32,000 nucleotides of DNA from Ktedonobacterales bacterium (GCA_030167145.1 CP126532.1:1320001-1352000), one strand, 5' to 3'. Shown: positions 7,975-15,759, numbered from the stretch's first letter. Translations and numbers: made by a program. The notes: a model not told the origin generated them from the letters alone.

Positions 7975-8065
7975 CAGATAGAAATGCACGCCGACAGACA
8001 GGAATGCACGCCGACAGACAGAGCCGACAGATAGAAATGCACGCCGACAGACAAGAATGTCTGTC
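7975..8065 (+). repeat. Three tandem imperfect copies of (aga)aatgcacgccgacagaca, ending in family B hairpin GACAGACA-agaa-TGTCTGTC
   Basis: Copies end at 8000, 8020 and 8053. The hairpin is at 8046-8065. The array lies between the yggU stop (7962) and the FMN-reductase start (8121). Confidence 0.9.
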
Positions 8066-8120
8066 CTACCGGTGGGGCGGACCTTCCCGTCTGCCCGCAG
8101 TCGCAGTGGAAGGAGTGCTC

Positions 8121-8687
8121 ATGGCGGATGACATGATGCGTGTGCTGGGCATCTCTGGCAGCCTGCGCGAGGGTTCGTATAACACGGCGTTGCTGCGCGC
8201 CGCCGGGGAGATGCTGCCAGCGGGCATGACGCTCGACATCGTCACGGTCGGCGATTTGCCGCTCTTCAACCAGGATTTGCTGATGCCGGAGCCGCCGGAG
8301 CCGGTGCGCCGCTTCAAGGCGCGAGTGGCCGCCGCCGACGCGCTGCTCTTTGCCGCTCCCGAATACAATTACTCGATCAGTGGGGTGCTAAAGAACGCGA
8401 TTGATTGGGGGTCGCGTCCGCTGGCGCAGAATGTGTTTGATGGCAAGCCCGCCGCGTTGATGGGCGCGACCACGGGCCTGATGGGGACGGCGCGCGTCCA
8501 GTTGCACCTGCGGCAGATCGGCGTGTTCGTGAACCTGCTGATTCTGAACCAGCCACAGGTGTTGATTGCGCGGGCGGCGGAGAAATTCGATGACGCGGGC
8601 CGCTTGACCGACGAGCCGACTCGCGAGCACGTGCGCAAGTTGCTGGTGGCGCTGGATGCCTGGGTGCGGCGGCTGAACCCGCGCTAG
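8121..8687 (+). CDS. NAD(P)H-dependent FMN reductase (ChrR/YieF/SsuE-like flavodoxin-fold)
   Basis: Track ORF 8004..8687. ATG 8121 follows GGAAGGAG. Motifs seen: MRVLGISGSLR.GSYN, LLFAAPEYNYSISGVLKNAIDW.SR. Confidence 0.85.
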   Translation: MADDMMRVLGISGSLREGSYNTALLRAAGEMLPAGMTLDIVTVGDLPLFNQDLLMPEPPEPVRRFKARVAAADALLFAAPEYNYSISGVLKNAIDWGSRPLAQNVFDGKPAALMGATTGLMGTARVQLHLRQIGVFVNLLILNQPQVLIARAAEKFDDAGRLTDEPTREHVRKLLVALDAWVRRLNPR

Positions 8688-8725
8688 ATGTAGATGAGCA
8701 GGCACGAGAAGGAAGGTTTGGACAG

Positions 8726-9865
8726 ATGCGTACCACACATACGATGGTGTTGCCGCCACGGCTGGCCCTCGCCGCATCCACGGTCTACGCCGTCCAGGGC
8801 AGTATCTTCGCGCTCAACGCCGCCAGTGGCGCACACCTTCGGCGCTACGACGCTCAGACCATTGATGCGCCCGCTGTGGATGCGGATACCCTCTACTGCA
8901 CCGGTCCAACAATGTCTGGCACAGTGCTGGTGGCGATGCAGATCAGCGATGGTGCGACACGCTGGCGTTTTCCCGACGAGCATCGCATGTATACCGTGCC
9001 TATGCTTGCCGGCGGACTCGTCTACACGACCACTGTTGAGGGCATGATGTACGCATTGCAGACCAGCGACGGCGTAGAGATGTGGGCGTTCGAGGCGGGA
9101 CAGATCATCACCGCATCGCCTACCGTCGCGGATGGCCTCATCTATGTCGCGCCCGCCGTCAATGCCCCGGAACAGCCATACGTCTATGTGCTCGATGCGA
9201 GCACGGGGATATTGCTCTGGAGCGCGCCGGTCCCCGATTCTACGGCGCATCGGCTCACGGTGCATGCTGGCGTGCTCTATATCTCCACCCACCGGGGCTG
9301 CGCCGCGCTCAGCGCAACGACTGGCGCGCTGCTCTGGAGTCGCGATCTGCCGCCGTGGGGGCCATGCTCCGCGCCAGTGGCGATTGGCGATACTGTATGC
9401 CTATCTACCCGCACCATGCCCCGGCCTGTCCGGCGAGAAGATGGCACGATTGAACACGCGCCCGGCGGGGGACAGGTGGTGGCGCTGCGCGCGAGCGACG
9501 GCGCGCACCTCTGGCAGCGCGACCTCGACGGCGCGCACAGCCCCACTGAACTGGCGGCGTTCGATGACGTGCTCTACGTTGGTAGTGACGCCGCCTCATT
9601 CGACGCTGCTGGCAACGCCTCAGTCTATGCGCTGCGCAGCCAGGATGGGGCGATCATCTGGCAGGCTACCACCGCAGGCGAACGCCTTGCTACGCCCGTC
9701 GCTACGAGTGACGCCGTCTACGTGGGCGCAAGCGATGGCTGTGTCTATGCTTTACGCGCCAATGATGGCACGCGCCTGTGGCAGACGTTCACCAGTACCG
9801 CCGTGAGCGTGGCGATGGCAATCTCAGGCGAGTTGACGATTTCTGGTGACAAGCCCTCCGCGTAG
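8726..9865 (+). CDS. PQQ-like (BamB/YVTN-type) beta-propeller repeat protein, no obvious signal peptide
   Basis: Repeated blades of the form G.(V/L)Y(V/I)....G.(V/L)YAL....G...W (for example MYALQTSDGVEMW, VYALRSQDGAIIWQ, VYALRANDGTRLWQ). GAAGGAAGG SD; 38-nt gap after the FMN reductase gene. Confidence 0.75.
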   Translation: MRTTHTMVLPPRLALAASTVYAVQGSIFALNAASGAHLRRYDAQTIDAPAVDADTLYCTGPTMSGTVLVAMQISDGATRWRFPDEHRMYTVPMLAGGLVYTTTVEGMMYALQTSDGVEMWAFEAGQIITASPTVADGLIYVAPAVNAPEQPYVYVLDASTGILLWSAPVPDSTAHRLTVHAGVLYISTHRGCAALSATTGALLWSRDLPPWGPCSAPVAIGDTVCLSTRTMPRPVRREDGTIEHAPGGGQVVALRASDGAHLWQRDLDGAHSPTELAAFDDVLYVGSDAASFDAAGNASVYALRSQDGAIIWQATTAGERLATPVATSDAVYVGASDGCVYALRANDGTRLWQTFTSTAVSVAMAISGELTISGDKPSA

Positions 9866-9938
9866 ACCTCGTAGCGGCATCCGGCAGGCGCTAGCCCGTG
9901 GTGAGGTCGCGGCGACAACCACCCGCCAATATTCCTGG

Positions 9939-9967
9939 TTGTGCGGCGTACTGGCCCATGCTATACT
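9939..9967 (+). promoter_or_regulatory. Promoter TTGTGC-N17-(TGc)TATACT of the four-gene complex-I-like operon
   Basis: -35 at 9939-9944; extended -10 TGCTATACT ends at 9967. It lies in the 110-bp gap after the propeller gene. Confidence 0.5.
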
Positions 9968-9975
9968 CGCCGTAA

Positions 9976-11151
9976 GTGTCCGCGAGCCAGCGCCCACGCA
10001 CGCTGGCCGCCGCGCGTGACGCATGCGATTACGCATCCCGCCTCCAATCCACTGGAAGGAGCGTTCCTACGAGCACCGTCCTCTTCCCGCTGGGGCCGTT
10101 TTCTCCGGCCCTCACCCAGCCGCTTGGGCTGACACTGCGCCTGCGCGGCGAAACCGTCGCCGGCATCGAGCCGGTCATCACGGGCTATTGCCACCGCGGC
10201 GTCTGCGAGTTGGCCGGGGGCGAACCCCTCGAAGACGCGCTGGCCATCGTCGAACGCGCCTGCTCGCTGGCTCATGAATCACATCGCATCGCCGTCTGCA
10301 TGGCCGTCGAAAAGGCCACCGGCGGCAAAGTCGCCAAGCCTGCCGCGCAGACCCGCGTCCTCTTCGCCGAAATCGAACGCATCCATGCGCGTTTCTGGAC
10401 GCTGGCCCACGTCGCCCGCGCCTTTGGCCTGAATGGCCCGATGCAGGACGCTCTAGAACAGCGCGAGAGCCTCTTCGACGCGCTGAAAACGGCCACCGGC
10501 CAGCGCCACTATTGGGGCGTCTCCGTCCCTGGTGGGGTGCGTGGCGGGATGGACCTCGAACCGCTGAGCGCCGCGCTCGCCACGCTCGAACCCGCGCTCG
10601 CGATCTGGCGTCGCATCGTGGGGCCGCAGGGCGCGCTGGGCCGCGCTGGCAAGGGCGTCGGCGTCATCGCGGCTGAGCGCGCCGAAGACCTGGGCCTCAC
10701 CGGCCTGGCCGCACGTGGCTCGCGCGCCGTTGCCGACCTGCGCTTCACCCAGAAATATGGCGCATACGCTGATCTGAGCCGCAAAGACACTGAGCGGAAA
10801 ATTGACCAAAGTGGCGACATCGCCGCGCGACTCGTCTGTGCTGTTGAGGATATTGCAGTCAGCCTCACGCTCGCCCAAACCTGTGCCAGCGCGCTTGCCA
10901 CGTCGAGCGCCACAGCCGCCGGAATCACCCCGGCGGGCAGCCTATCGGGCAGCGCCAGGGTGGAGGGTCCTCACGGGCCAATCGAGGCCACGGTCACCCT
11001 TGCGGGCGGCACACTCGCCTCGCTAGAGCTACACGAGCCAGGGGCCGAAAATCTGGCCGCCCTGCCGGAGCTACTGGAAGGGCAATCGCTCGCGCAGGTT
11101 CCGGCGCTGCTGGCCAGCCTGGACCTCTGTGTCGAGTGCCGCGATCTCTAA
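9976..11151 (+). CDS. NuoD/EchE/HycE-like large subunit (group-4 [NiFe]-hydrogenase / complex I 49-kDa family), metal site partly degenerate
   Basis: LGPFSPALTQPLGLTLRLRGETVAGIEPVITGYCHRGVCEL aligns with GPQHPALKEP...GE.V......GY.HRG.EK. An L1-like motif ERACSLAHESH (nt 10261-10284) replaces R.CG.C...H. The L2-like C-terminus DLCVECRDL-stop (11122-11151) corresponds to DPC..C..R/H. The only canonical in-frame start is GTG 9976. Confidence 0.8.
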   Translation: MSASQRPRTLAAARDACDYASRLQSTGRSVPTSTVLFPLGPFSPALTQPLGLTLRLRGETVAGIEPVITGYCHRGVCELAGGEPLEDALAIVERACSLAHESHRIAVCMAVEKATGGKVAKPAAQTRVLFAEIERIHARFWTLAHVARAFGLNGPMQDALEQRESLFDALKTATGQRHYWGVSVPGGVRGGMDLEPLSAALATLEPALAIWRRIVGPQGALGRAGKGVGVIAAERAEDLGLTGLAARGSRAVADLRFTQKYGAYADLSRKDTERKIDQSGDIAARLVCAVEDIAVSLTLAQTCASALATSSATAAGITPAGSLSGSARVEGPHGPIEATVTLAGGTLASLELHEPGAENLAALPELLEGQSLAQVPALLASLDLCVECRDL

Positions 11152-11169
11152 CGGAAAGGAAGGGCGGTT

Positions 11170-13509
11170 GTGCCACTTTCGACATACATGGAGCTATTGA
11201 CGCTGGCGCCCGGCGTCTTCGCTCTGCTGATCCTGATCGCGGGGCTGCTGAAAAAGCCACTCGCGCCGCTGACGCTGGGGCTGGCCGCACTTGGCGCGCT
11301 CGTGCCGGTAGTCTGCCTGTTGTTGATCGTCTCGGCGCTACATGGGACGACCGTGCCGCTGTGGTTCACGCTCTTTGGCGGCTCGATCAGCGAAACGGCG
11401 TGGTTCTCGGCAGCCTACCGCATTGATCCGCTGGGCATCTACGCTGCCTTTGGCATTACGTGCATCGTTGCGCCGCTGCTGATCTGGATGGCCTGGCAGC
11501 GCGGCAATGAGGTCATCGCCAGCGGCACGGCAGTGGACGCGGAGAGCGATCAGGAGGGCAATCAGGAGAGCGGTGAGGCAGCGACGCAGCCGTTCACACG
11601 GCGGAGCGTCTCGCCCGCCATCTGGGGCGGCCTCGCCCTTGCGCTCGGTGTCGAATCCGCCGCGCTGACGCTGGTCTTCAGCGATAACGCGCTGTGGCTG
11701 GCGCTTTCATGGGTACTGCTCGCCATCATGGGGTGGGGCCTGGGCGAAGTCGGCAGCGACCCCGACACCCTGGATAAGCCAGGGCTGGCGCTGATGGTCG
11801 CTGGGCCACTGCTCTGGGCGCTCTTCTTCCTCTTTCCGGCGTTTGGCGCGCATACCGCGCAGACGGTCTATCCGCGCTTTACGGATATGATGGGCCGTGG
11901 CGGCGTCAGCCCGCTGCAAGCGCTGGCGCTGGCTGTGGCGCTGGCGCTGGCGGGCGGCGCGTATCCGTTCCTGGCGTGGGTGCGCGCCCGCGCGGCGCTG
12001 ATTACGCCCGCTGGCCTTACCGCGCTGGCGCTGGTTGTGCTGCCAGCGGCGATTTTTGTGGGCGCGCGCACCTACAGCGCCGCACAGAACGCGGCGAGCG
12101 CCTGGCAGCAGATCGGGCAGGCGCGGCCACCCGTCACCGGCGGTGTCTTTTTCGCGCTGCTCGGTGCGCTCACCGTCGGCATCTGCGGGCTGCTGGCGCT
12201 CGAACGCCGTGACGGACGCGCGCTGATCGCCTTCCTTGCCGCGTCGCAGGTTGGCTGGGGCTTGCTGGCGATTGGCATCGGCGTGCCTGAAAGCGCGGTC
12301 GGTCTGGTCGCGCTGCTGGGAACCACGGTGTTGGGCCTGGGGGCGATGCTCGCCGCGCAGTATGCCGGCGACACCCTCACCAGCGACATCGAACCCGATG
12401 CCGCCGGGCCACGCCCATTCGGCGCACCGGTGCATCCAGTGCGCCTGGCCGCGTGGATCGCCGGCGCGCTGGCGCTGGTTGGCGCGCCGCTCTGCGCGGG
12501 CTTCGTGCCGCGCCAACTGACGATGGCAGGCGCGATCCATGCGCAGGGTCTGACCATTCCGCTCAGCGGCCTGGCCTGGGCTGGCGATGCTTTGCTGTTC
12601 CTGGCTTTGCTGCGCGCCGTCGCTCCCGCCTTCACCCAGTTCTTCCCCGCCCGCGCCGCCGCGCTGGCCGCGAGTGAGGCCGCCGATGACGAGTCCGCCG
12701 ATGGAGTGGAGGTAGCGGAAGACGCGGGCCAATCAATCGAGGATAAGCGCACCACGTCGCGCGGGCGCGGTGTTTCTTTCACCGTGCGCGATGTGCCTGC
12801 CGCGCTGCTGGGCCTGCTGGTGGTGGTGGTTTCGGTCGCCCCGCAGGCGCTGCTGACGGTGGGCGCGCTCCCCGGCGCGACGGCCCTGCTCCAGGCGAGC
12901 GACGCCGCTATTGCCGCCAATGTCAGCGCGTTGCAATATACGGCTGGCCCCGCGCAGGTTGTCGCCTCCATCGCCTGGATCGCCGCCGCCGTCTTCTTCG
13001 TGCTGCGGGTCTTCCTGATGCCCAGCGGCGACCGCGAAAGCCAGCCGGTCTATCTAGCGGGCCGATCTGGCGCCGATCTGGCGACAGCCGATGGCGACGT
13101 GGCAGTCGAGCTAGCTGGCCTGCCCGCCCCCAGAGATACCTGGCAAGACCTCAAGCCCACCTTTGATTCCGCATGGACGCTCCCCGGCGCTGAGTGGTTG
13201 ATGAATGGCATGGAAGATGAAGCCGAAACCGACGATGAGCTAGAAGGCGCGGAAGACGAAGACATCGGGGCAGAGGATGAAGCGGAGGTAGCGGAGCGCG
13301 ACGCGGACGCGCCAGAAGCTGTGTCAGAAGCAGCGCCCGTTGCGGAAGAGACGGGGGAGAAGGCGGAGGAAGTGCGGGAAGAACCGACCCCACCCACCAG
13401 CGCGGCCCCACCCCCGGAGGCGAAACGCAGCGTGCCTACCGCCGCATCGAGGCAAAGCAGCAGCGCAAAGAATACCCAGAAGCGCGGCAAGACGGGAGGC
13501 CGAGCATGA
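11170..13509 (+). CDS. NuoL/M/N / EchA / Mrp-antiporter-like polytopic membrane subunit with a long acidic C-terminal tail
   Basis: GTG 11170 follows GGAAAGGAAGGG. It has more than 14 hydrophobic segments. PF00361-like blocks seen: YRIDPLGIY, LWLALSWVLLAIMGWGLG, AGGAYPFLAWVRARAALITPAGLTAL, LIAFLAASQVGWGLLAIGIG, ALVGAPLCAGFVPRQL. The tail from ~13200 is EDEAETDDELEGAEDEDIGAEDEAEVAERDADAPE... Confidence 0.7.
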   Translation: MPLSTYMELLTLAPGVFALLILIAGLLKKPLAPLTLGLAALGALVPVVCLLLIVSALHGTTVPLWFTLFGGSISETAWFSAAYRIDPLGIYAAFGITCIVAPLLIWMAWQRGNEVIASGTAVDAESDQEGNQESGEAATQPFTRRSVSPAIWGGLALALGVESAALTLVFSDNALWLALSWVLLAIMGWGLGEVGSDPDTLDKPGLALMVAGPLLWALFFLFPAFGAHTAQTVYPRFTDMMGRGGVSPLQALALAVALALAGGAYPFLAWVRARAALITPAGLTALALVVLPAAIFVGARTYSAAQNAASAWQQIGQARPPVTGGVFFALLGALTVGICGLLALERRDGRALIAFLAASQVGWGLLAIGIGVPESAVGLVALLGTTVLGLGAMLAAQYAGDTLTSDIEPDAAGPRPFGAPVHPVRLAAWIAGALALVGAPLCAGFVPRQLTMAGAIHAQGLTIPLSGLAWAGDALLFLALLRAVAPAFTQFFPARAAALAASEAADDESADGVEVAEDAGQSIEDKRTTSRGRGVSFTVRDVPAALLGLLVVVVSVAPQALLTVGALPGATALLQASDAAIAANVSALQYTAGPAQVVASIAWIAAAVFFVLRVFLMPSGDRESQPVYLAGRSGADLATADGDVAVELAGLPAPRDTWQDLKPTFDSAWTLPGAEWLMNGMEDEAETDDELEGAEDEDIGAEDEAEVAERDADAPEAVSEAAPVAEETGEKAEEVREEPTPPTSAAPPPEAKRSVPTAASRQSSSAKNTQKRGKTGGRA

Positions 13510-13997
13510 GCACATCACCAACACGCCGCCGCACATCCGTTTGGGTGCTGCCGCTGGCGGCGGGCGGTTGTGGCGCCTGCACGCAAAGCATCTACGCGCT
13601 TCAGGCCACGGGCTACGCCGCCGCGCTCAAAGCCGACGGCATTAGCTTCGCGAGCAGTCCGCGCCATGCCGACATCATCCTGCTGAATGGCCCGCTCACC
13701 GAGCAGGCGCATGAAGCGATCCAGCAGGCGCTGGACGCCGTGCCCCTGCCGCGTGCGCTGGTCGCCGTCGGCAATTGCGCGATTGACGGCTGTGTCTTCG
13801 CGGGCGGCGCGGGCATCATCGCCAATGCCGCCGAAACGCTCAACGTCAACATTGATATTCCCGGCTGTCCGCCCGCGCCTGACGCCATTCTGGCCGCGAT
13901 TGGCGAGGCCGCGAATCTGCTGAGCGGCGCGCATGATAGTATCAGCGATACCAGCGACACGGACGATGCGGACGATGCGGGGGAGGACGAGGCATGA
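13506..13997 (+). CDS. NuoB/EchC/HycG-like small subunit (20-kDa [4Fe-4S] subunit family)
   Basis: ATGA overlap with the upstream stop. Motifs seen: LAAGGCGAC (CxxC), SPRHADIILLNGP, VAVGNCAIDG, IPGCPPAPD. Acidic C-terminal tail SDTSDTDDADDAGEDEA. Confidence 0.85.
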   Translation: MSTSPTRRRTSVWVLPLAAGGCGACTQSIYALQATGYAAALKADGISFASSPRHADIILLNGPLTEQAHEAIQQALDAVPLPRALVAVGNCAIDGCVFAGGAGIIANAAETLNVNIDIPGCPPAPDAILAAIGEAANLLSGAHDSISDTSDTDDADDAGEDEA

Positions 13998-14956
13998 ACG
14001 GAGTACTGGCCTTTGCGCTGGCGGTGTTGATCTACCCCGGCGTGGCAGTGGCGCTGGTGGCCGCGTGGGCGCTCTCGTGGGCGCGCCAGTCGGCCCGCGC
14101 CGTCACCGGTGGCAGCGCCATCCCTGGTCCGCTGCGCGACGTAAACGAGCTACGTAGCGAGATCGAGCGCGACACTATCACCCCCCACGGGGTATCAGCT
14201 CGTTTCCTCAATGTGGTGTCGAGTCTGGCCGTTGTTTTTCCCCTGCTGGCGCTGGTGCTGCTGCCTGTTCCCGGCAATCCGCTGGTGAACAGCATCGGCC
14301 TGAAGGGCGACATCGCGCTGGAAGGCGGGCTGCTGCTGGGCGTGCCGGTCATGCGGCTGCTGGTCGCCTGGGCGATCCCCTCGCCCTATACGCGGATCGC
14401 GGCGGATCGCGGGGTGCGGCTGCTCGCGGGGGTGGTGGTCACGATGGTGCTCGCCCTCACCGCGATTGCCGAGCAACTCGCTACGCTCACCCTGAATGTG
14501 GAGCCATCGAAGACGGCGCTACCGACCTTCGCGATCATCACCCGCATCCTGGCGGCACTGGCCTTCATCTTCACGCTGCCCGCGCTGGCGCGAGTGAGCG
14601 CGCTGCGGGCTGGCCATGGCAACCTGGAGGTGTCGGCGGGCGAGCTAAGCGAGGTCAGTGGGCAGGATCTGGCGGGCTTCCGTCTGGCCGAAGCGGTCCA
14701 GTTGGTCGCGGTGGCGGCGGTCTTCGTCGCGGTGTTCGTGGTGCCAATCTTCCCCACCGTCGCGGGCACGGGGCGGGCGCTGGTCTGGATTGTGGGCATC
14801 ATCCTCACGGCGCTGGGCATCGGCGCATGGGAAGGCTACGCCAGCCGCGAAGCCACCTCCGCCGAACGCCCGCCGCTCAACTGGTGGCTGGGCTGGCCGA
14901 TCCTGCTGGCAATGCTGGCGCTGGTCGCTGCCGCGTGGGCCGCGCGCGGGGTGTAA
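13994..14956 (+). CDS. NuoH/EchB/HycD-like membrane subunit
   Basis: ATGA overlap with the upstream stop. About 8 TM segments. WARQSARAVTGGSAIPGPL corresponds to ER+..A..Q.R.GP, and LEVSAGELSEVSGQDLAGFRLAEAV corresponds to AE.ESELV.G...EYSG..FA.F.LAEY. Confidence 0.75.
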   Translation: MNGVLAFALAVLIYPGVAVALVAAWALSWARQSARAVTGGSAIPGPLRDVNELRSEIERDTITPHGVSARFLNVVSSLAVVFPLLALVLLPVPGNPLVNSIGLKGDIALEGGLLLGVPVMRLLVAWAIPSPYTRIAADRGVRLLAGVVVTMVLALTAIAEQLATLTLNVEPSKTALPTFAIITRILAALAFIFTLPALARVSALRAGHGNLEVSAGELSEVSGQDLAGFRLAEAVQLVAVAAVFVAVFVVPIFPTVAGTGRALVWIVGIILTALGIGAWEGYASREATSAERPPLNWWLGWPILLAMLALVAAAWAARGV

Positions 14957-14958
14957 GG

Positions 14959-15759
14959 TCACGCAAGCAGTTCTTCCAGCACGACCGCGACGCCGTCCTC
15001 ATCGTTGCTAGGGGCGATGCGGTCAGCGGCGGCGCGGGTGGCTTCTGCCCCATTCGCCATTGCCACCGCCATCCCCGCCGCGCGCAAGAGCGGAATATCG
15101 TTCTCACCGTCGCCTATCGCCAGCACCGCTTCGCGTGGGATGCTGAGCGATTCGCGCAGGGCCGCCAGCGCCAGTCCTTTGCCCGCCTCCGCGTCGAAGA
15201 ACTCCAAGAAGTCCGGAGTCGTCGTGGTCATGATGATTTCGGGCGGCAGCAGCGGCGCGAGTGCCGCACGGAGCGCGGCCAGGCGCAGTGGTGGCCCCGC
15301 CAGAAGGATTTTCGCGGCGGGTGGCAGTTCGGGCGCGAGTAGGTTCGGCACGATCTCTGGTGGCCCCTCGCCGTATTCGCGAAAGATGCCAATGTCGGGA
15401 TGTGGCGTGTCCATATAGATCATGTCCAGCGCGAAGTGCGACACCAGCAGCGATGGGTCGGCCTGCCGCACCAGCCGGAGCACCAGATAGTGGCCCGCCT
15501 GGGAGAGAGGACGAAAGCGCAGGGTTGCGCCGGTGGCGCTCTCGCGGGTCGCCGCGCCGTTCAGCACGATCTGCGGACCCGATACCCCCATCTCGGCCAG
15601 CAGCGGCAGCACTGACCCCATCAACTTGCCAGTGGCGAGCGCGATAGTAGCGCCAGCATCCTGGGCGGCGCGCACTGCGGCGGCCACACGCGGGCGTAGG
15701 TGGTGCGCCGAATCCAGCAGCGTGCCATCCACATCCAGCGCGATCAAGCGATACTGCAT
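14959..15759 (-). CDS. Cof-type HAD-IIB family hydrolase (sugar-phosphate phosphatase-like)
   Basis: Motifs seen: LIALDVDGTLL (motif I), ATGK (II/III region), AIGDGENDIPLL..AG..VAM.N (motif IV). Convergent with the NuoH-like gene, 2 bp apart. Confidence 0.85.
   Translation of the reverse strand: MQYRLIALDVDGTLLDSAHHLRPRVAAAVRAAQDAGATIALATGKLMGSVLPLLAEMGVSGPQIVLNGAATRESATGATLRFRPLSQAGHYLVLRLVRQADPSLLVSHFALDMIYMDTPHPDIGIFREYGEGPPEIVPNLLAPELPPAAKILLAGPPLRLAALRAALAPLLPPEIIMTTTTPDFLEFFDAEAGKGLALAALRESLSIPREAVLAIGDGENDIPLLRAAGMAVAMANGAEATRAAADRIAPSNDEDGVAVVLEELLA

Follow-up and report, generated by a model that had tools for sequence, protein, structure and literature searches.

This study provided evidence, drawn from sequence comparison, that a large subunit encoded in the genome of a Ktedonobacterales bacterium carries an old, stably selected, and Hyp-independent remodelled site in an Ehr-like minimal complex. 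The gene lies in a window (the whole stretch of DNA analysed, 32,000 nucleotides, CP126532.1:1320001-1352000 of GCA_030167145.1), and its product retains 3/4 of the four-Cys ligand set of a group 4 hydrogenase. The old active site has probably acquired another use. The best explanation as a whole, which we put forward tentatively as a possibility somewhat short of an even chance, is a Cys3(+His333) mononuclear metal site within a module that would not be a hydrogenase. The four genes of the module are as follows:

9976-11151, plus strand: large subunit (NuoD/EchE/MbhL-like), 391 aa; PF00346 at 2.7e-24, PF00374 weak.
11170-13509, plus strand: antiporter-like membrane subunit, 779 aa, very divergent; PF00361 at 4.5e-7.
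13506-13997, plus strand: NuoB/EchC-like small subunit, 163 aa; PF01058 at 3e-21.
13994-14956, plus strand: NuoH/EchB-like membrane anchor, 320 aa; PF00146 at 1.4e-11.

Concerning the identity of the 391-aa product, the match to PF00346 (Complex1_49kDa) was accompanied by a weak match to PF00374 (NiFeSe_Hases), confined to the N-terminal part of that family, and the protein fell far under every cut-off of the NCBIfam NuoD, FpoD, and hydrogenase models (for NuoD, NF004739 gives 153 bits vs a cut-off of 360). The closest solved relative by sequence is MbhL (6cfw_L), found at E 2e-25 by phmmer with the single sequence and at E 1e-47 with the family profile; the profile score for MbsL was lower than that for MbhL (129 vs 166 bits). 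The AlphaFold (AF2) model, built from 69 sequences, reached a pLDDT of 89.8, with residues 1-28 below 50 and disordered, and its top Foldseek matches were the complex I 49-kDa subunit, HycE, and MbhL, with TM of about 0.8. The ORF has a single canonical start, GTG 9976. Conservation sets in at about residue 30, and the homologues and the model start at about residues 28-32. The true start is uncertain and may lie downstream of this GTG. A strong GGAAGGAG is located at 10054-10061, 7 nt upstream of an ACG codon (10069).

The positions of the former metal site were placed by two alignments to MbhL, by phmmer and by the family profile, which agree on all ligand positions:

10093-10122, plus strand: beta1-beta2 loop, G40-P-F-S-P-A-L-T-Q-P49 (MbhL alignments).
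10261-10263, plus strand: Cys96, the first Cys of MbhL ERMCGIC, retained (phmmer and profile alignment).
10270-10272, plus strand: Ala99, at the second N-terminal ligand Cys position, lost (same two alignments).
10282-10287, plus strand: His103-Arg104; His103 (10282-10284) is the His trailing the N-terminal motif, and Arg104 is family-specific.
10972-10974, plus strand: His333 in E-G-P-H-G, at the catalytic Arg position (E-A-P-R-G in hydrogenases; Lys in complex I).
11122-11151, plus strand: C-terminus D383-L-C385-V-E387-C388-R-D-L and stop; C385 and C388 fall on MbhL DPCLSC.

The first-pass annotation of this DNA had read the N-terminal motif ERACSLAHESH as retaining its first Cys and its trailing His and as having Ala in place of the second Cys, and had counted three of the four [NiFe]-ligand cysteines as kept. 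Both readings were borne out by the alignments: the translation of 9976-11151 gives E93-R-A-C96-S-L-A99-H-E-S-H103, and C96, C385, and C388 align to the ligands of MbhL. The large subunit stops three residues past C388, so the absence of a C-terminal extension, also pointed out in that annotation, is real; it is no sign of decay, since the nearest four-Cys Ech/Coo-type relatives likewise lack the extension. The accompanying dichotomy, in which NuoD proteins have none of the four Cys and hydrogenases have all of them, does not hold, because partial states are known: MbsL keeps 2 of the 4 (C85 and C385; PMC7684303), and an FpoD retains the positions of C96 and C385. In the literature searched, we found no description of a three-Cys group 4 variant or family.

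The G40-P49 loop stands where complex I has GPQHP..H and MbhL has GPIHPGLEEP. The quinone His of complex I is missing from the loop, and Q48 occupies the position of the proton-relay Glu (MbhL E21). A change in this loop (GPFSPALTQP) had been pointed out earlier; it is real and in part specific to this gene, as Ser43 is a minority state against the family consensus PLGPYHPAL.QP, whereas most core-family members share the loss of the relay Glu. In the family, position 48 is Gln in 45, Leu in 15, and Glu in 3 sequences, and it is Glu in nearly all four-Cys relatives; the relay Glu is kept in the outer subclades, and most of the core family has Gln or Leu. A carboxylate tends to be present at only one of positions 48 and 387, as Q/L48 with E387 in the core family and as E48 with A/S387 in the outer subclades, with exceptions in P0110, P0004, and P0074 (both carboxylates) and P0111 (neither). 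Given these exceptions, a "carboxylate swap" between E48 and E387 was rejected as a rule; it is only a tendency and may reflect one or few events.

The conservation of the three cysteines was evaluated in about 100 clusters (40-93% identity) obtained by a homologue search of 5.8 billion proteins; the few clusters bearing organism names were Ktedonobacterales. In the aligned homologues, C96 was Cys in 99/99, and C385 and C388 were Cys in 101/101. Random drift of the C-S-L-A and C-V-E-C cysteines, which had been named as the alternative outcome of such an orthologue check, is thus not what the family displays. The adjacent E387 is family-typical (Glu in 99/101), position 99 is occupied by Ala (79), Ser (16), Gly (3), or Cys (1), position 103 by His (79) or Tyr (14), and R104 is present in 99/99. 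In a 64-sequence alignment with a mean column identity of 44%, C96, C385, and C388 were among just 23 invariant columns, and no substitution of the three was seen, at identities as low as 35%, in the roughly 100 clusters or in about 30 orthologues from genomes, apart from exceptions in one family-level group (f3). In the genomic DNA of 31 distinct orthologous genes, the TGC/TGT codons were distributed as 25/5 at C96, 21/10 at C385, and 19/12 at C388; since both codons are in use at each Cys, the residue has been held while the DNA varies.

Position 333 was His in 27/27 core-family rows vs Arg in 98/98 four-Cys relatives, with Gln in its place in the group designated f2. The same comparison of 27 core-family rows with 98 four-Cys relatives revealed W141, W180, and W211 as further family-specific positions, and R104 occurs in 96% of the family vs 2% of true hydrogenases. 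The conservation pattern indicates strong purifying selection on the three cysteines and, in the core family, on His333.

Concerning the origin of the family, a profile search of 1.84 billion representatives retrieved about 22 family clusters and then directly ordinary hydrogenases. The full Glu/Cys/Cys/Arg/Cys/Cys signature was found in 107 of about 165 aligned group 4 relatives, and the named members of the nearest clusters were a "carbon monoxide-induced hydrogenase" (CooH type) and 360-aa Ech-like proteins of Oscillospiraceae. The family forms a clade with 98-99% support nested in four-Cys hydrogenases, in FastTree and IQ-TREE analyses with agreeing topologies. Within it, f2 (Cys-Ala, Gln333) branches first, followed by a mixed f3 that is sister to a uniform f1, the window's own group, represented on the trees by 24-27 rows (about 100 clusters at 90% identity). 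By this phylogeny, the module is placed as a descendant of Ech/Coo-type group 4 [NiFe] hydrogenases in an uncultured Ktedonobacteria lineage. Separate losses of Cys99 in f1 and f2, suggested by both trees, were not retained as a conclusion, as a single loss is not rejected by the AU test (p 0.445).

Two metagenome proteins that are sister to the clade likewise combine three Cys with one His at the former [NiFe] positions, in differing slots: P0224 has C96/H99/C385/C388 with Ala333, and P0200 has Ser96 and C99/H333/C385/C388. A third candidate, P0141, was dismissed as an independent three-Cys form, as it carries CxC and hence four Cys. The f3 group is heterogeneous, with some members having four Cys and His333 and another having Asp99. 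In the f3 genome G006 (L042, G006:C58:2300-17047, and L030), the large subunit is intact at the four Cys, at the catalytic Arg, and at the relay Glu, and all four [4Fe-4S] Cys of the small subunit are gone (GSGDGS, GDAF, PGSPP); this pattern of decay is the reverse of the window's, and the genome has HypD and a separate true hydrogenase. In another f3 genome, G010 (L043/L034, G010:C73), the N-terminal CxxC is intact, C388 is replaced by Asp, and one cluster Cys of the small subunit is lost (CPP to NPP), which looks like genuine decay of that orthologue.

The capacity of the genome to mature a [NiFe] center was evaluated in the closed, one-contig genome of 5.07 Mb. The search for hypA-F, recommended earlier, found none of HypA, HypB, HypC, HypD, HypE, and HypF above cut-off, and no second PF00374 or hydrogenase large subunit was detected in the 5.07-Mb genome. 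By its gene content, the window's organism would thus be unable to build the [NiFe] cofactor. Elsewhere, the genome encodes two ordinary NuoD proteins of 413 and 380 aa that are Cys-free, at G000:C1:4050633-4051445 and 4407934-4408674; therefore, two complex-I-type operons are probably present besides the module.

In a survey of 169 genomes of the class, the module was found in 30/44 genomes of f1, where HypD was found in 1/44, in 5/5 of f2 (HypD 3/5), in 6/7 of f3 (HypD 1/7), and in 0/112 of f4 (HypD 82/112); these group counts leave out the window's own genome, which belongs to f1. The f4 tally takes in three unpublished genomes (G075, G114, and G122), on which the conclusions do not depend, and, as the surveyed genomes are mutually related, the counts describe distribution and are no statistical test. 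With the window's genome counted, HypD was absent from 37/42 carriers, and the other five carriers all encode, separately from the module, a true [NiFe] large subunit of full length. The named loci come from Ktedonobacterales, Ktedonobacteria, or Chloroflexota MAGs, with one exception labelled Proteobacteria.

The gene order of the module, namely large subunit, antiporter-like, NuoB-like, and NuoH-like, was conserved in 12/12 and 18/18 loci, and the NuoH-like gene adjoins the small-subunit gene in 17/18 loci. From the ATGA overlaps between the antiporter-like and small-subunit genes and between the small-subunit and NuoH-like genes, the module is predicted to be translationally coupled. In the small subunit, Cys22, Cys25, Cys91, and Cys121 match the hydrogenase-type CxxC...C...CPP motif for a predicted [4Fe-4S] cluster, and all four are retained in f1 and f2 orthologues. 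The last 25 residues of this subunit form a strongly acidic tail (a Ser/Thr/Asp/Glu run), which might dock a basic redox partner. The best solved match of the antiporter-like subunit is MbsH (6u8y_X); its TM7 Lys is replaced by Ala and its TM12 Lys by Arg, no conserved Lys or Glu was found across 30 orthologues, and the conserved charges of the NuoH-like subunit are also few. The charges conserved in the antiporter-like subunit are D239, R272, R300, D348, and D406. Since canonical pump residues are missing from the membrane subunits, energy coupling is doubtful.

No ferredoxin-like or NuoC-like subunit was found in the module, and no other conserved neighbor genes, redox partners included, were found across 18 loci. 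An FMN reductase and a PQQ-like beta-propeller encoded upstream on the same strand (8004-9865) were considered as an electron input and rejected, as they stand beside the module in 0/18 loci; they are probably unrelated neighbors. Regarding regulatory elements, no fluoride riboswitch was detected in the window at the gathering score or at E<=1 in 9300-10300, no Rfam family, fluoride riboswitch included, was found at the module here or in 8 orthologous loci, and the promoter scan found no sigma-70 consensus in 9700-15400. In one f2 genome, a HEARO RNA (RF02033, 113.7 bits) is located at L045:11102-11310 on the minus strand, about 1.3 kb from the module, and points to a neighboring element of the IS200/IS605 type.

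Several known systems invite comparison with this module. [quoted passage not shown] 2013), and their large subunits are described as being without CxxC motifs (PMC10284858); a survey of Chloroflexi mentions Ehr complexes in the supergroup, in general terms only (10.1101/2021.08.23.457424). Like Ehr, the module would form a group-4-derived membrane complex with antiporter-like, NuoB-like, and NuoH-like partners in one operon, and its large subunit is not classable as a [NiFe] hydrogenase. Unlike Ehr as described, the window's family has an intact C-terminal CxxC together with the first Cys of the N-terminal pair, and the operon has four genes without NuoI-, NuoC-, NuoJ-, or NuoK-like subunits. 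Based on published descriptions, the module would be filed with the loosely defined Ehr complexes, its nearest neighbors in the trees being four-Cys hydrogenases.

The comparison with MBS is similarly mixed. In both, the large subunit derives from a hydrogenase and keeps part of the former [NiFe] site beside the proximal cluster, and the antiporter-like subunit here matches MbsH best. However, MbsL has 2/4 Cys vs three and a fixed His in the window's core family, and MBS is made of 13 subunits with three [4Fe-4S] clusters, of which the proximal one has three Cys, whereas the module here has four conserved genes and a single predicted cluster with a full Cys4 motif. The Mrp-like multi-subunit context and the 2x[4Fe-4S] subunit of MBS are absent from the four conserved genes here. 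The Ech/Coo-type enzymes (groups 4e/4c; EchE and CooH) are the nearest relatives in sequence, with large subunits about 360 aa long that likewise lack a C-terminal extension and a small subunit with a CxxC-type motif; unlike in the module, the large subunit is complete in its four Cys, catalytic Arg, and relay Glu, there are six subunits, among them a 2x[4Fe-4S] protein, and HypA-F are required. Complex I NuoD/Nqo4/49-kDa has the same fold (TM 0.8) and the same partners (NuoB, NuoH, and antiporter-like), but NuoD has none of the four Cys, and its quinone-binding His and Tyr correspond to T47 and S97 here.

One N-terminal ligand Cys is gone, the catalytic Arg is replaced by His and the relay Glu by Gln, and no Hyp genes are present; on these grounds, the module is predicted not to be a hydrogenase. 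That it still is one, with a [NiFe] or other H2-activating center assembled on three Cys by an undescribed route, could be argued from the three remaining ligand positions, the cluster motif of the small subunit, and the true hydrogenases as nearest relatives. Substitutions at the catalytic Arg and the relay Glu cripple standard [NiFe] enzymes. With these substitutions, the missing ligand Cys, a closed genome without Hyp genes, and 37/42 carriers without HypD, we consider this reading very improbable. The Ni-Fe(CN)2CO cofactor would no longer be made or bound. A recently inactivated hydrogenase drifting to loss, as had been proposed earlier, would be a pseudo-enzyme in decay, of which the f3 relatives G010 (C388 and one small-subunit Cys lost) and G006 (all small-subunit cluster Cys lost) look like examples; yet the three-Cys state is shared by three groups of family rank within a single order, at identities as low as 35%, is uniform and old in f1, and is accompanied by intact ORFs, a translationally coupled operon, and synonymous turnover of the Cys codons. 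The proposal is thus highly unlikely to apply to the window's gene.

We prefer the explanation that the pocket is not decayed, and that three thiolates (C96, C385, and C388) and His333 are held beside the retained proximal [4Fe-4S] cluster. In this explanation, the Cys3(+His333) pocket would hold a simple mononuclear metal ion (Fe, Zn, or Ni) that needs no chaperone, with His333 as a candidate ligand; the ion would tie the C-terminus to the N-terminal helix and may serve as a terminal site for redox chemistry or sensing, supplied by the [4Fe-4S] cluster. The suggestion of a different metal or cofactor in the first-pass annotation is therefore compatible with our data and is preferred, given the selection on the three Cys and His333, the lack of Hyp, and the [4Fe-4S] motif; it faces a serious rival in a structural vestige. 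The recurrence of "three Cys plus one His", otherwise arranged, in P0224 and P0200 also speaks for a metal ion. Against it, the side chain of His is shorter than that of Arg and may fall short of the metal position, f2 has Gln333, the module is without a ferredoxin-like or NuoC-like subunit, and its membrane subunits are without canonical pump residues. Moreover, the retained Cys of MBS are conserved yet dispensable (PMC7684303), and therefore conservation alone is no proof of a metal or catalytic role.

The structural alternative holds that the three Cys (and His333) are metal-free and serve, through packing or hydrogen bonds, to fasten the C-terminus against the N-terminal helix where the large subunit meets the small one. 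The same role was proposed for the two retained Cys of MbsL, C85 and C385 of MBS being conserved while the C85A/C385A enzyme is active (PMC7684303, PMC8165549); the FpoD with Cys at the positions of C96 and C385 and the degenerate look of the rest of the module, with its missing pump residues, point the same way. However, position 99, one turn away, accepts Ala or Ser, and with such tolerance packing residues seldom remain 100% Cys across a range of 35-93% identity. The replacement of Arg by His is fixed and not variable, and relatives rebuild "three Cys plus His" at other positions, which fits ligand counting better than packing. We regard this alternative as serious, if rather unlikely. A thiol redox site is distinctly unlikely in our judgment: C385-x-x-C388, possibly with C96, would cycle between dithiol and disulfide or persulfide and be reduced by the adjacent [4Fe-4S] cluster, with chemistry of the ferredoxin:thioredoxin reductase or heterodisulfide reductase type acting in the former active-site cavity on a small substrate, either a disulfide or a sulfane. 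The CxxC pair does adjoin the retained cluster motif, and a carboxylate is usually near the Cys (E48, or E387 when E48 is lost), which suits proton delivery to a thiol; but P0111 has neither carboxylate and P0110, P0004, and P0074 have both, the operon has no partner of sulfur or thiol metabolism, and a comparable mechanism has been tested for MBS and discarded (PMC7684303).

Beyond the preferred mononuclear metal site, a bolder proposal may be made, which we regard as unlikely: the Cys3-His pocket would be a chaperone-independent mononuclear Fe or Ni center, coupled electronically to the single [4Fe-4S] cluster and performing a new redox or sensing reaction in the smallest known module of the complex-I/hydrogenase type, a bare four-subunit "universal adaptor". 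If true, such a center would be a living and tractable intermediate between the [NiFe] site and the pocket that in MBS and complex I is free of cofactor.

Homologues of the large subunit are publicly labelled "Ni,Fe-hydrogenase III large subunit" or "nickel-dependent hydrogenase large subunit", and such labels would wrongly assign H2 metabolism to these Ktedonobacteria. In the accepted path from membrane hydrogenase to complex I, the [NiFe] cysteines were lost stepwise, with four in MBH, two in MBS, and none in complex I. To this path, the present family adds a state with three Cys that is stable and is accompanied by a fixed replacement of Arg by His; the genome here would be unable to mature [NiFe] centers, and the site sits in a module cut down to the four subunits common to the whole superfamily. 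A three-Cys site in a four-subunit module would therefore make testable both the role of a vacated [NiFe] pocket and the ability of the four-subunit core to function unaided.
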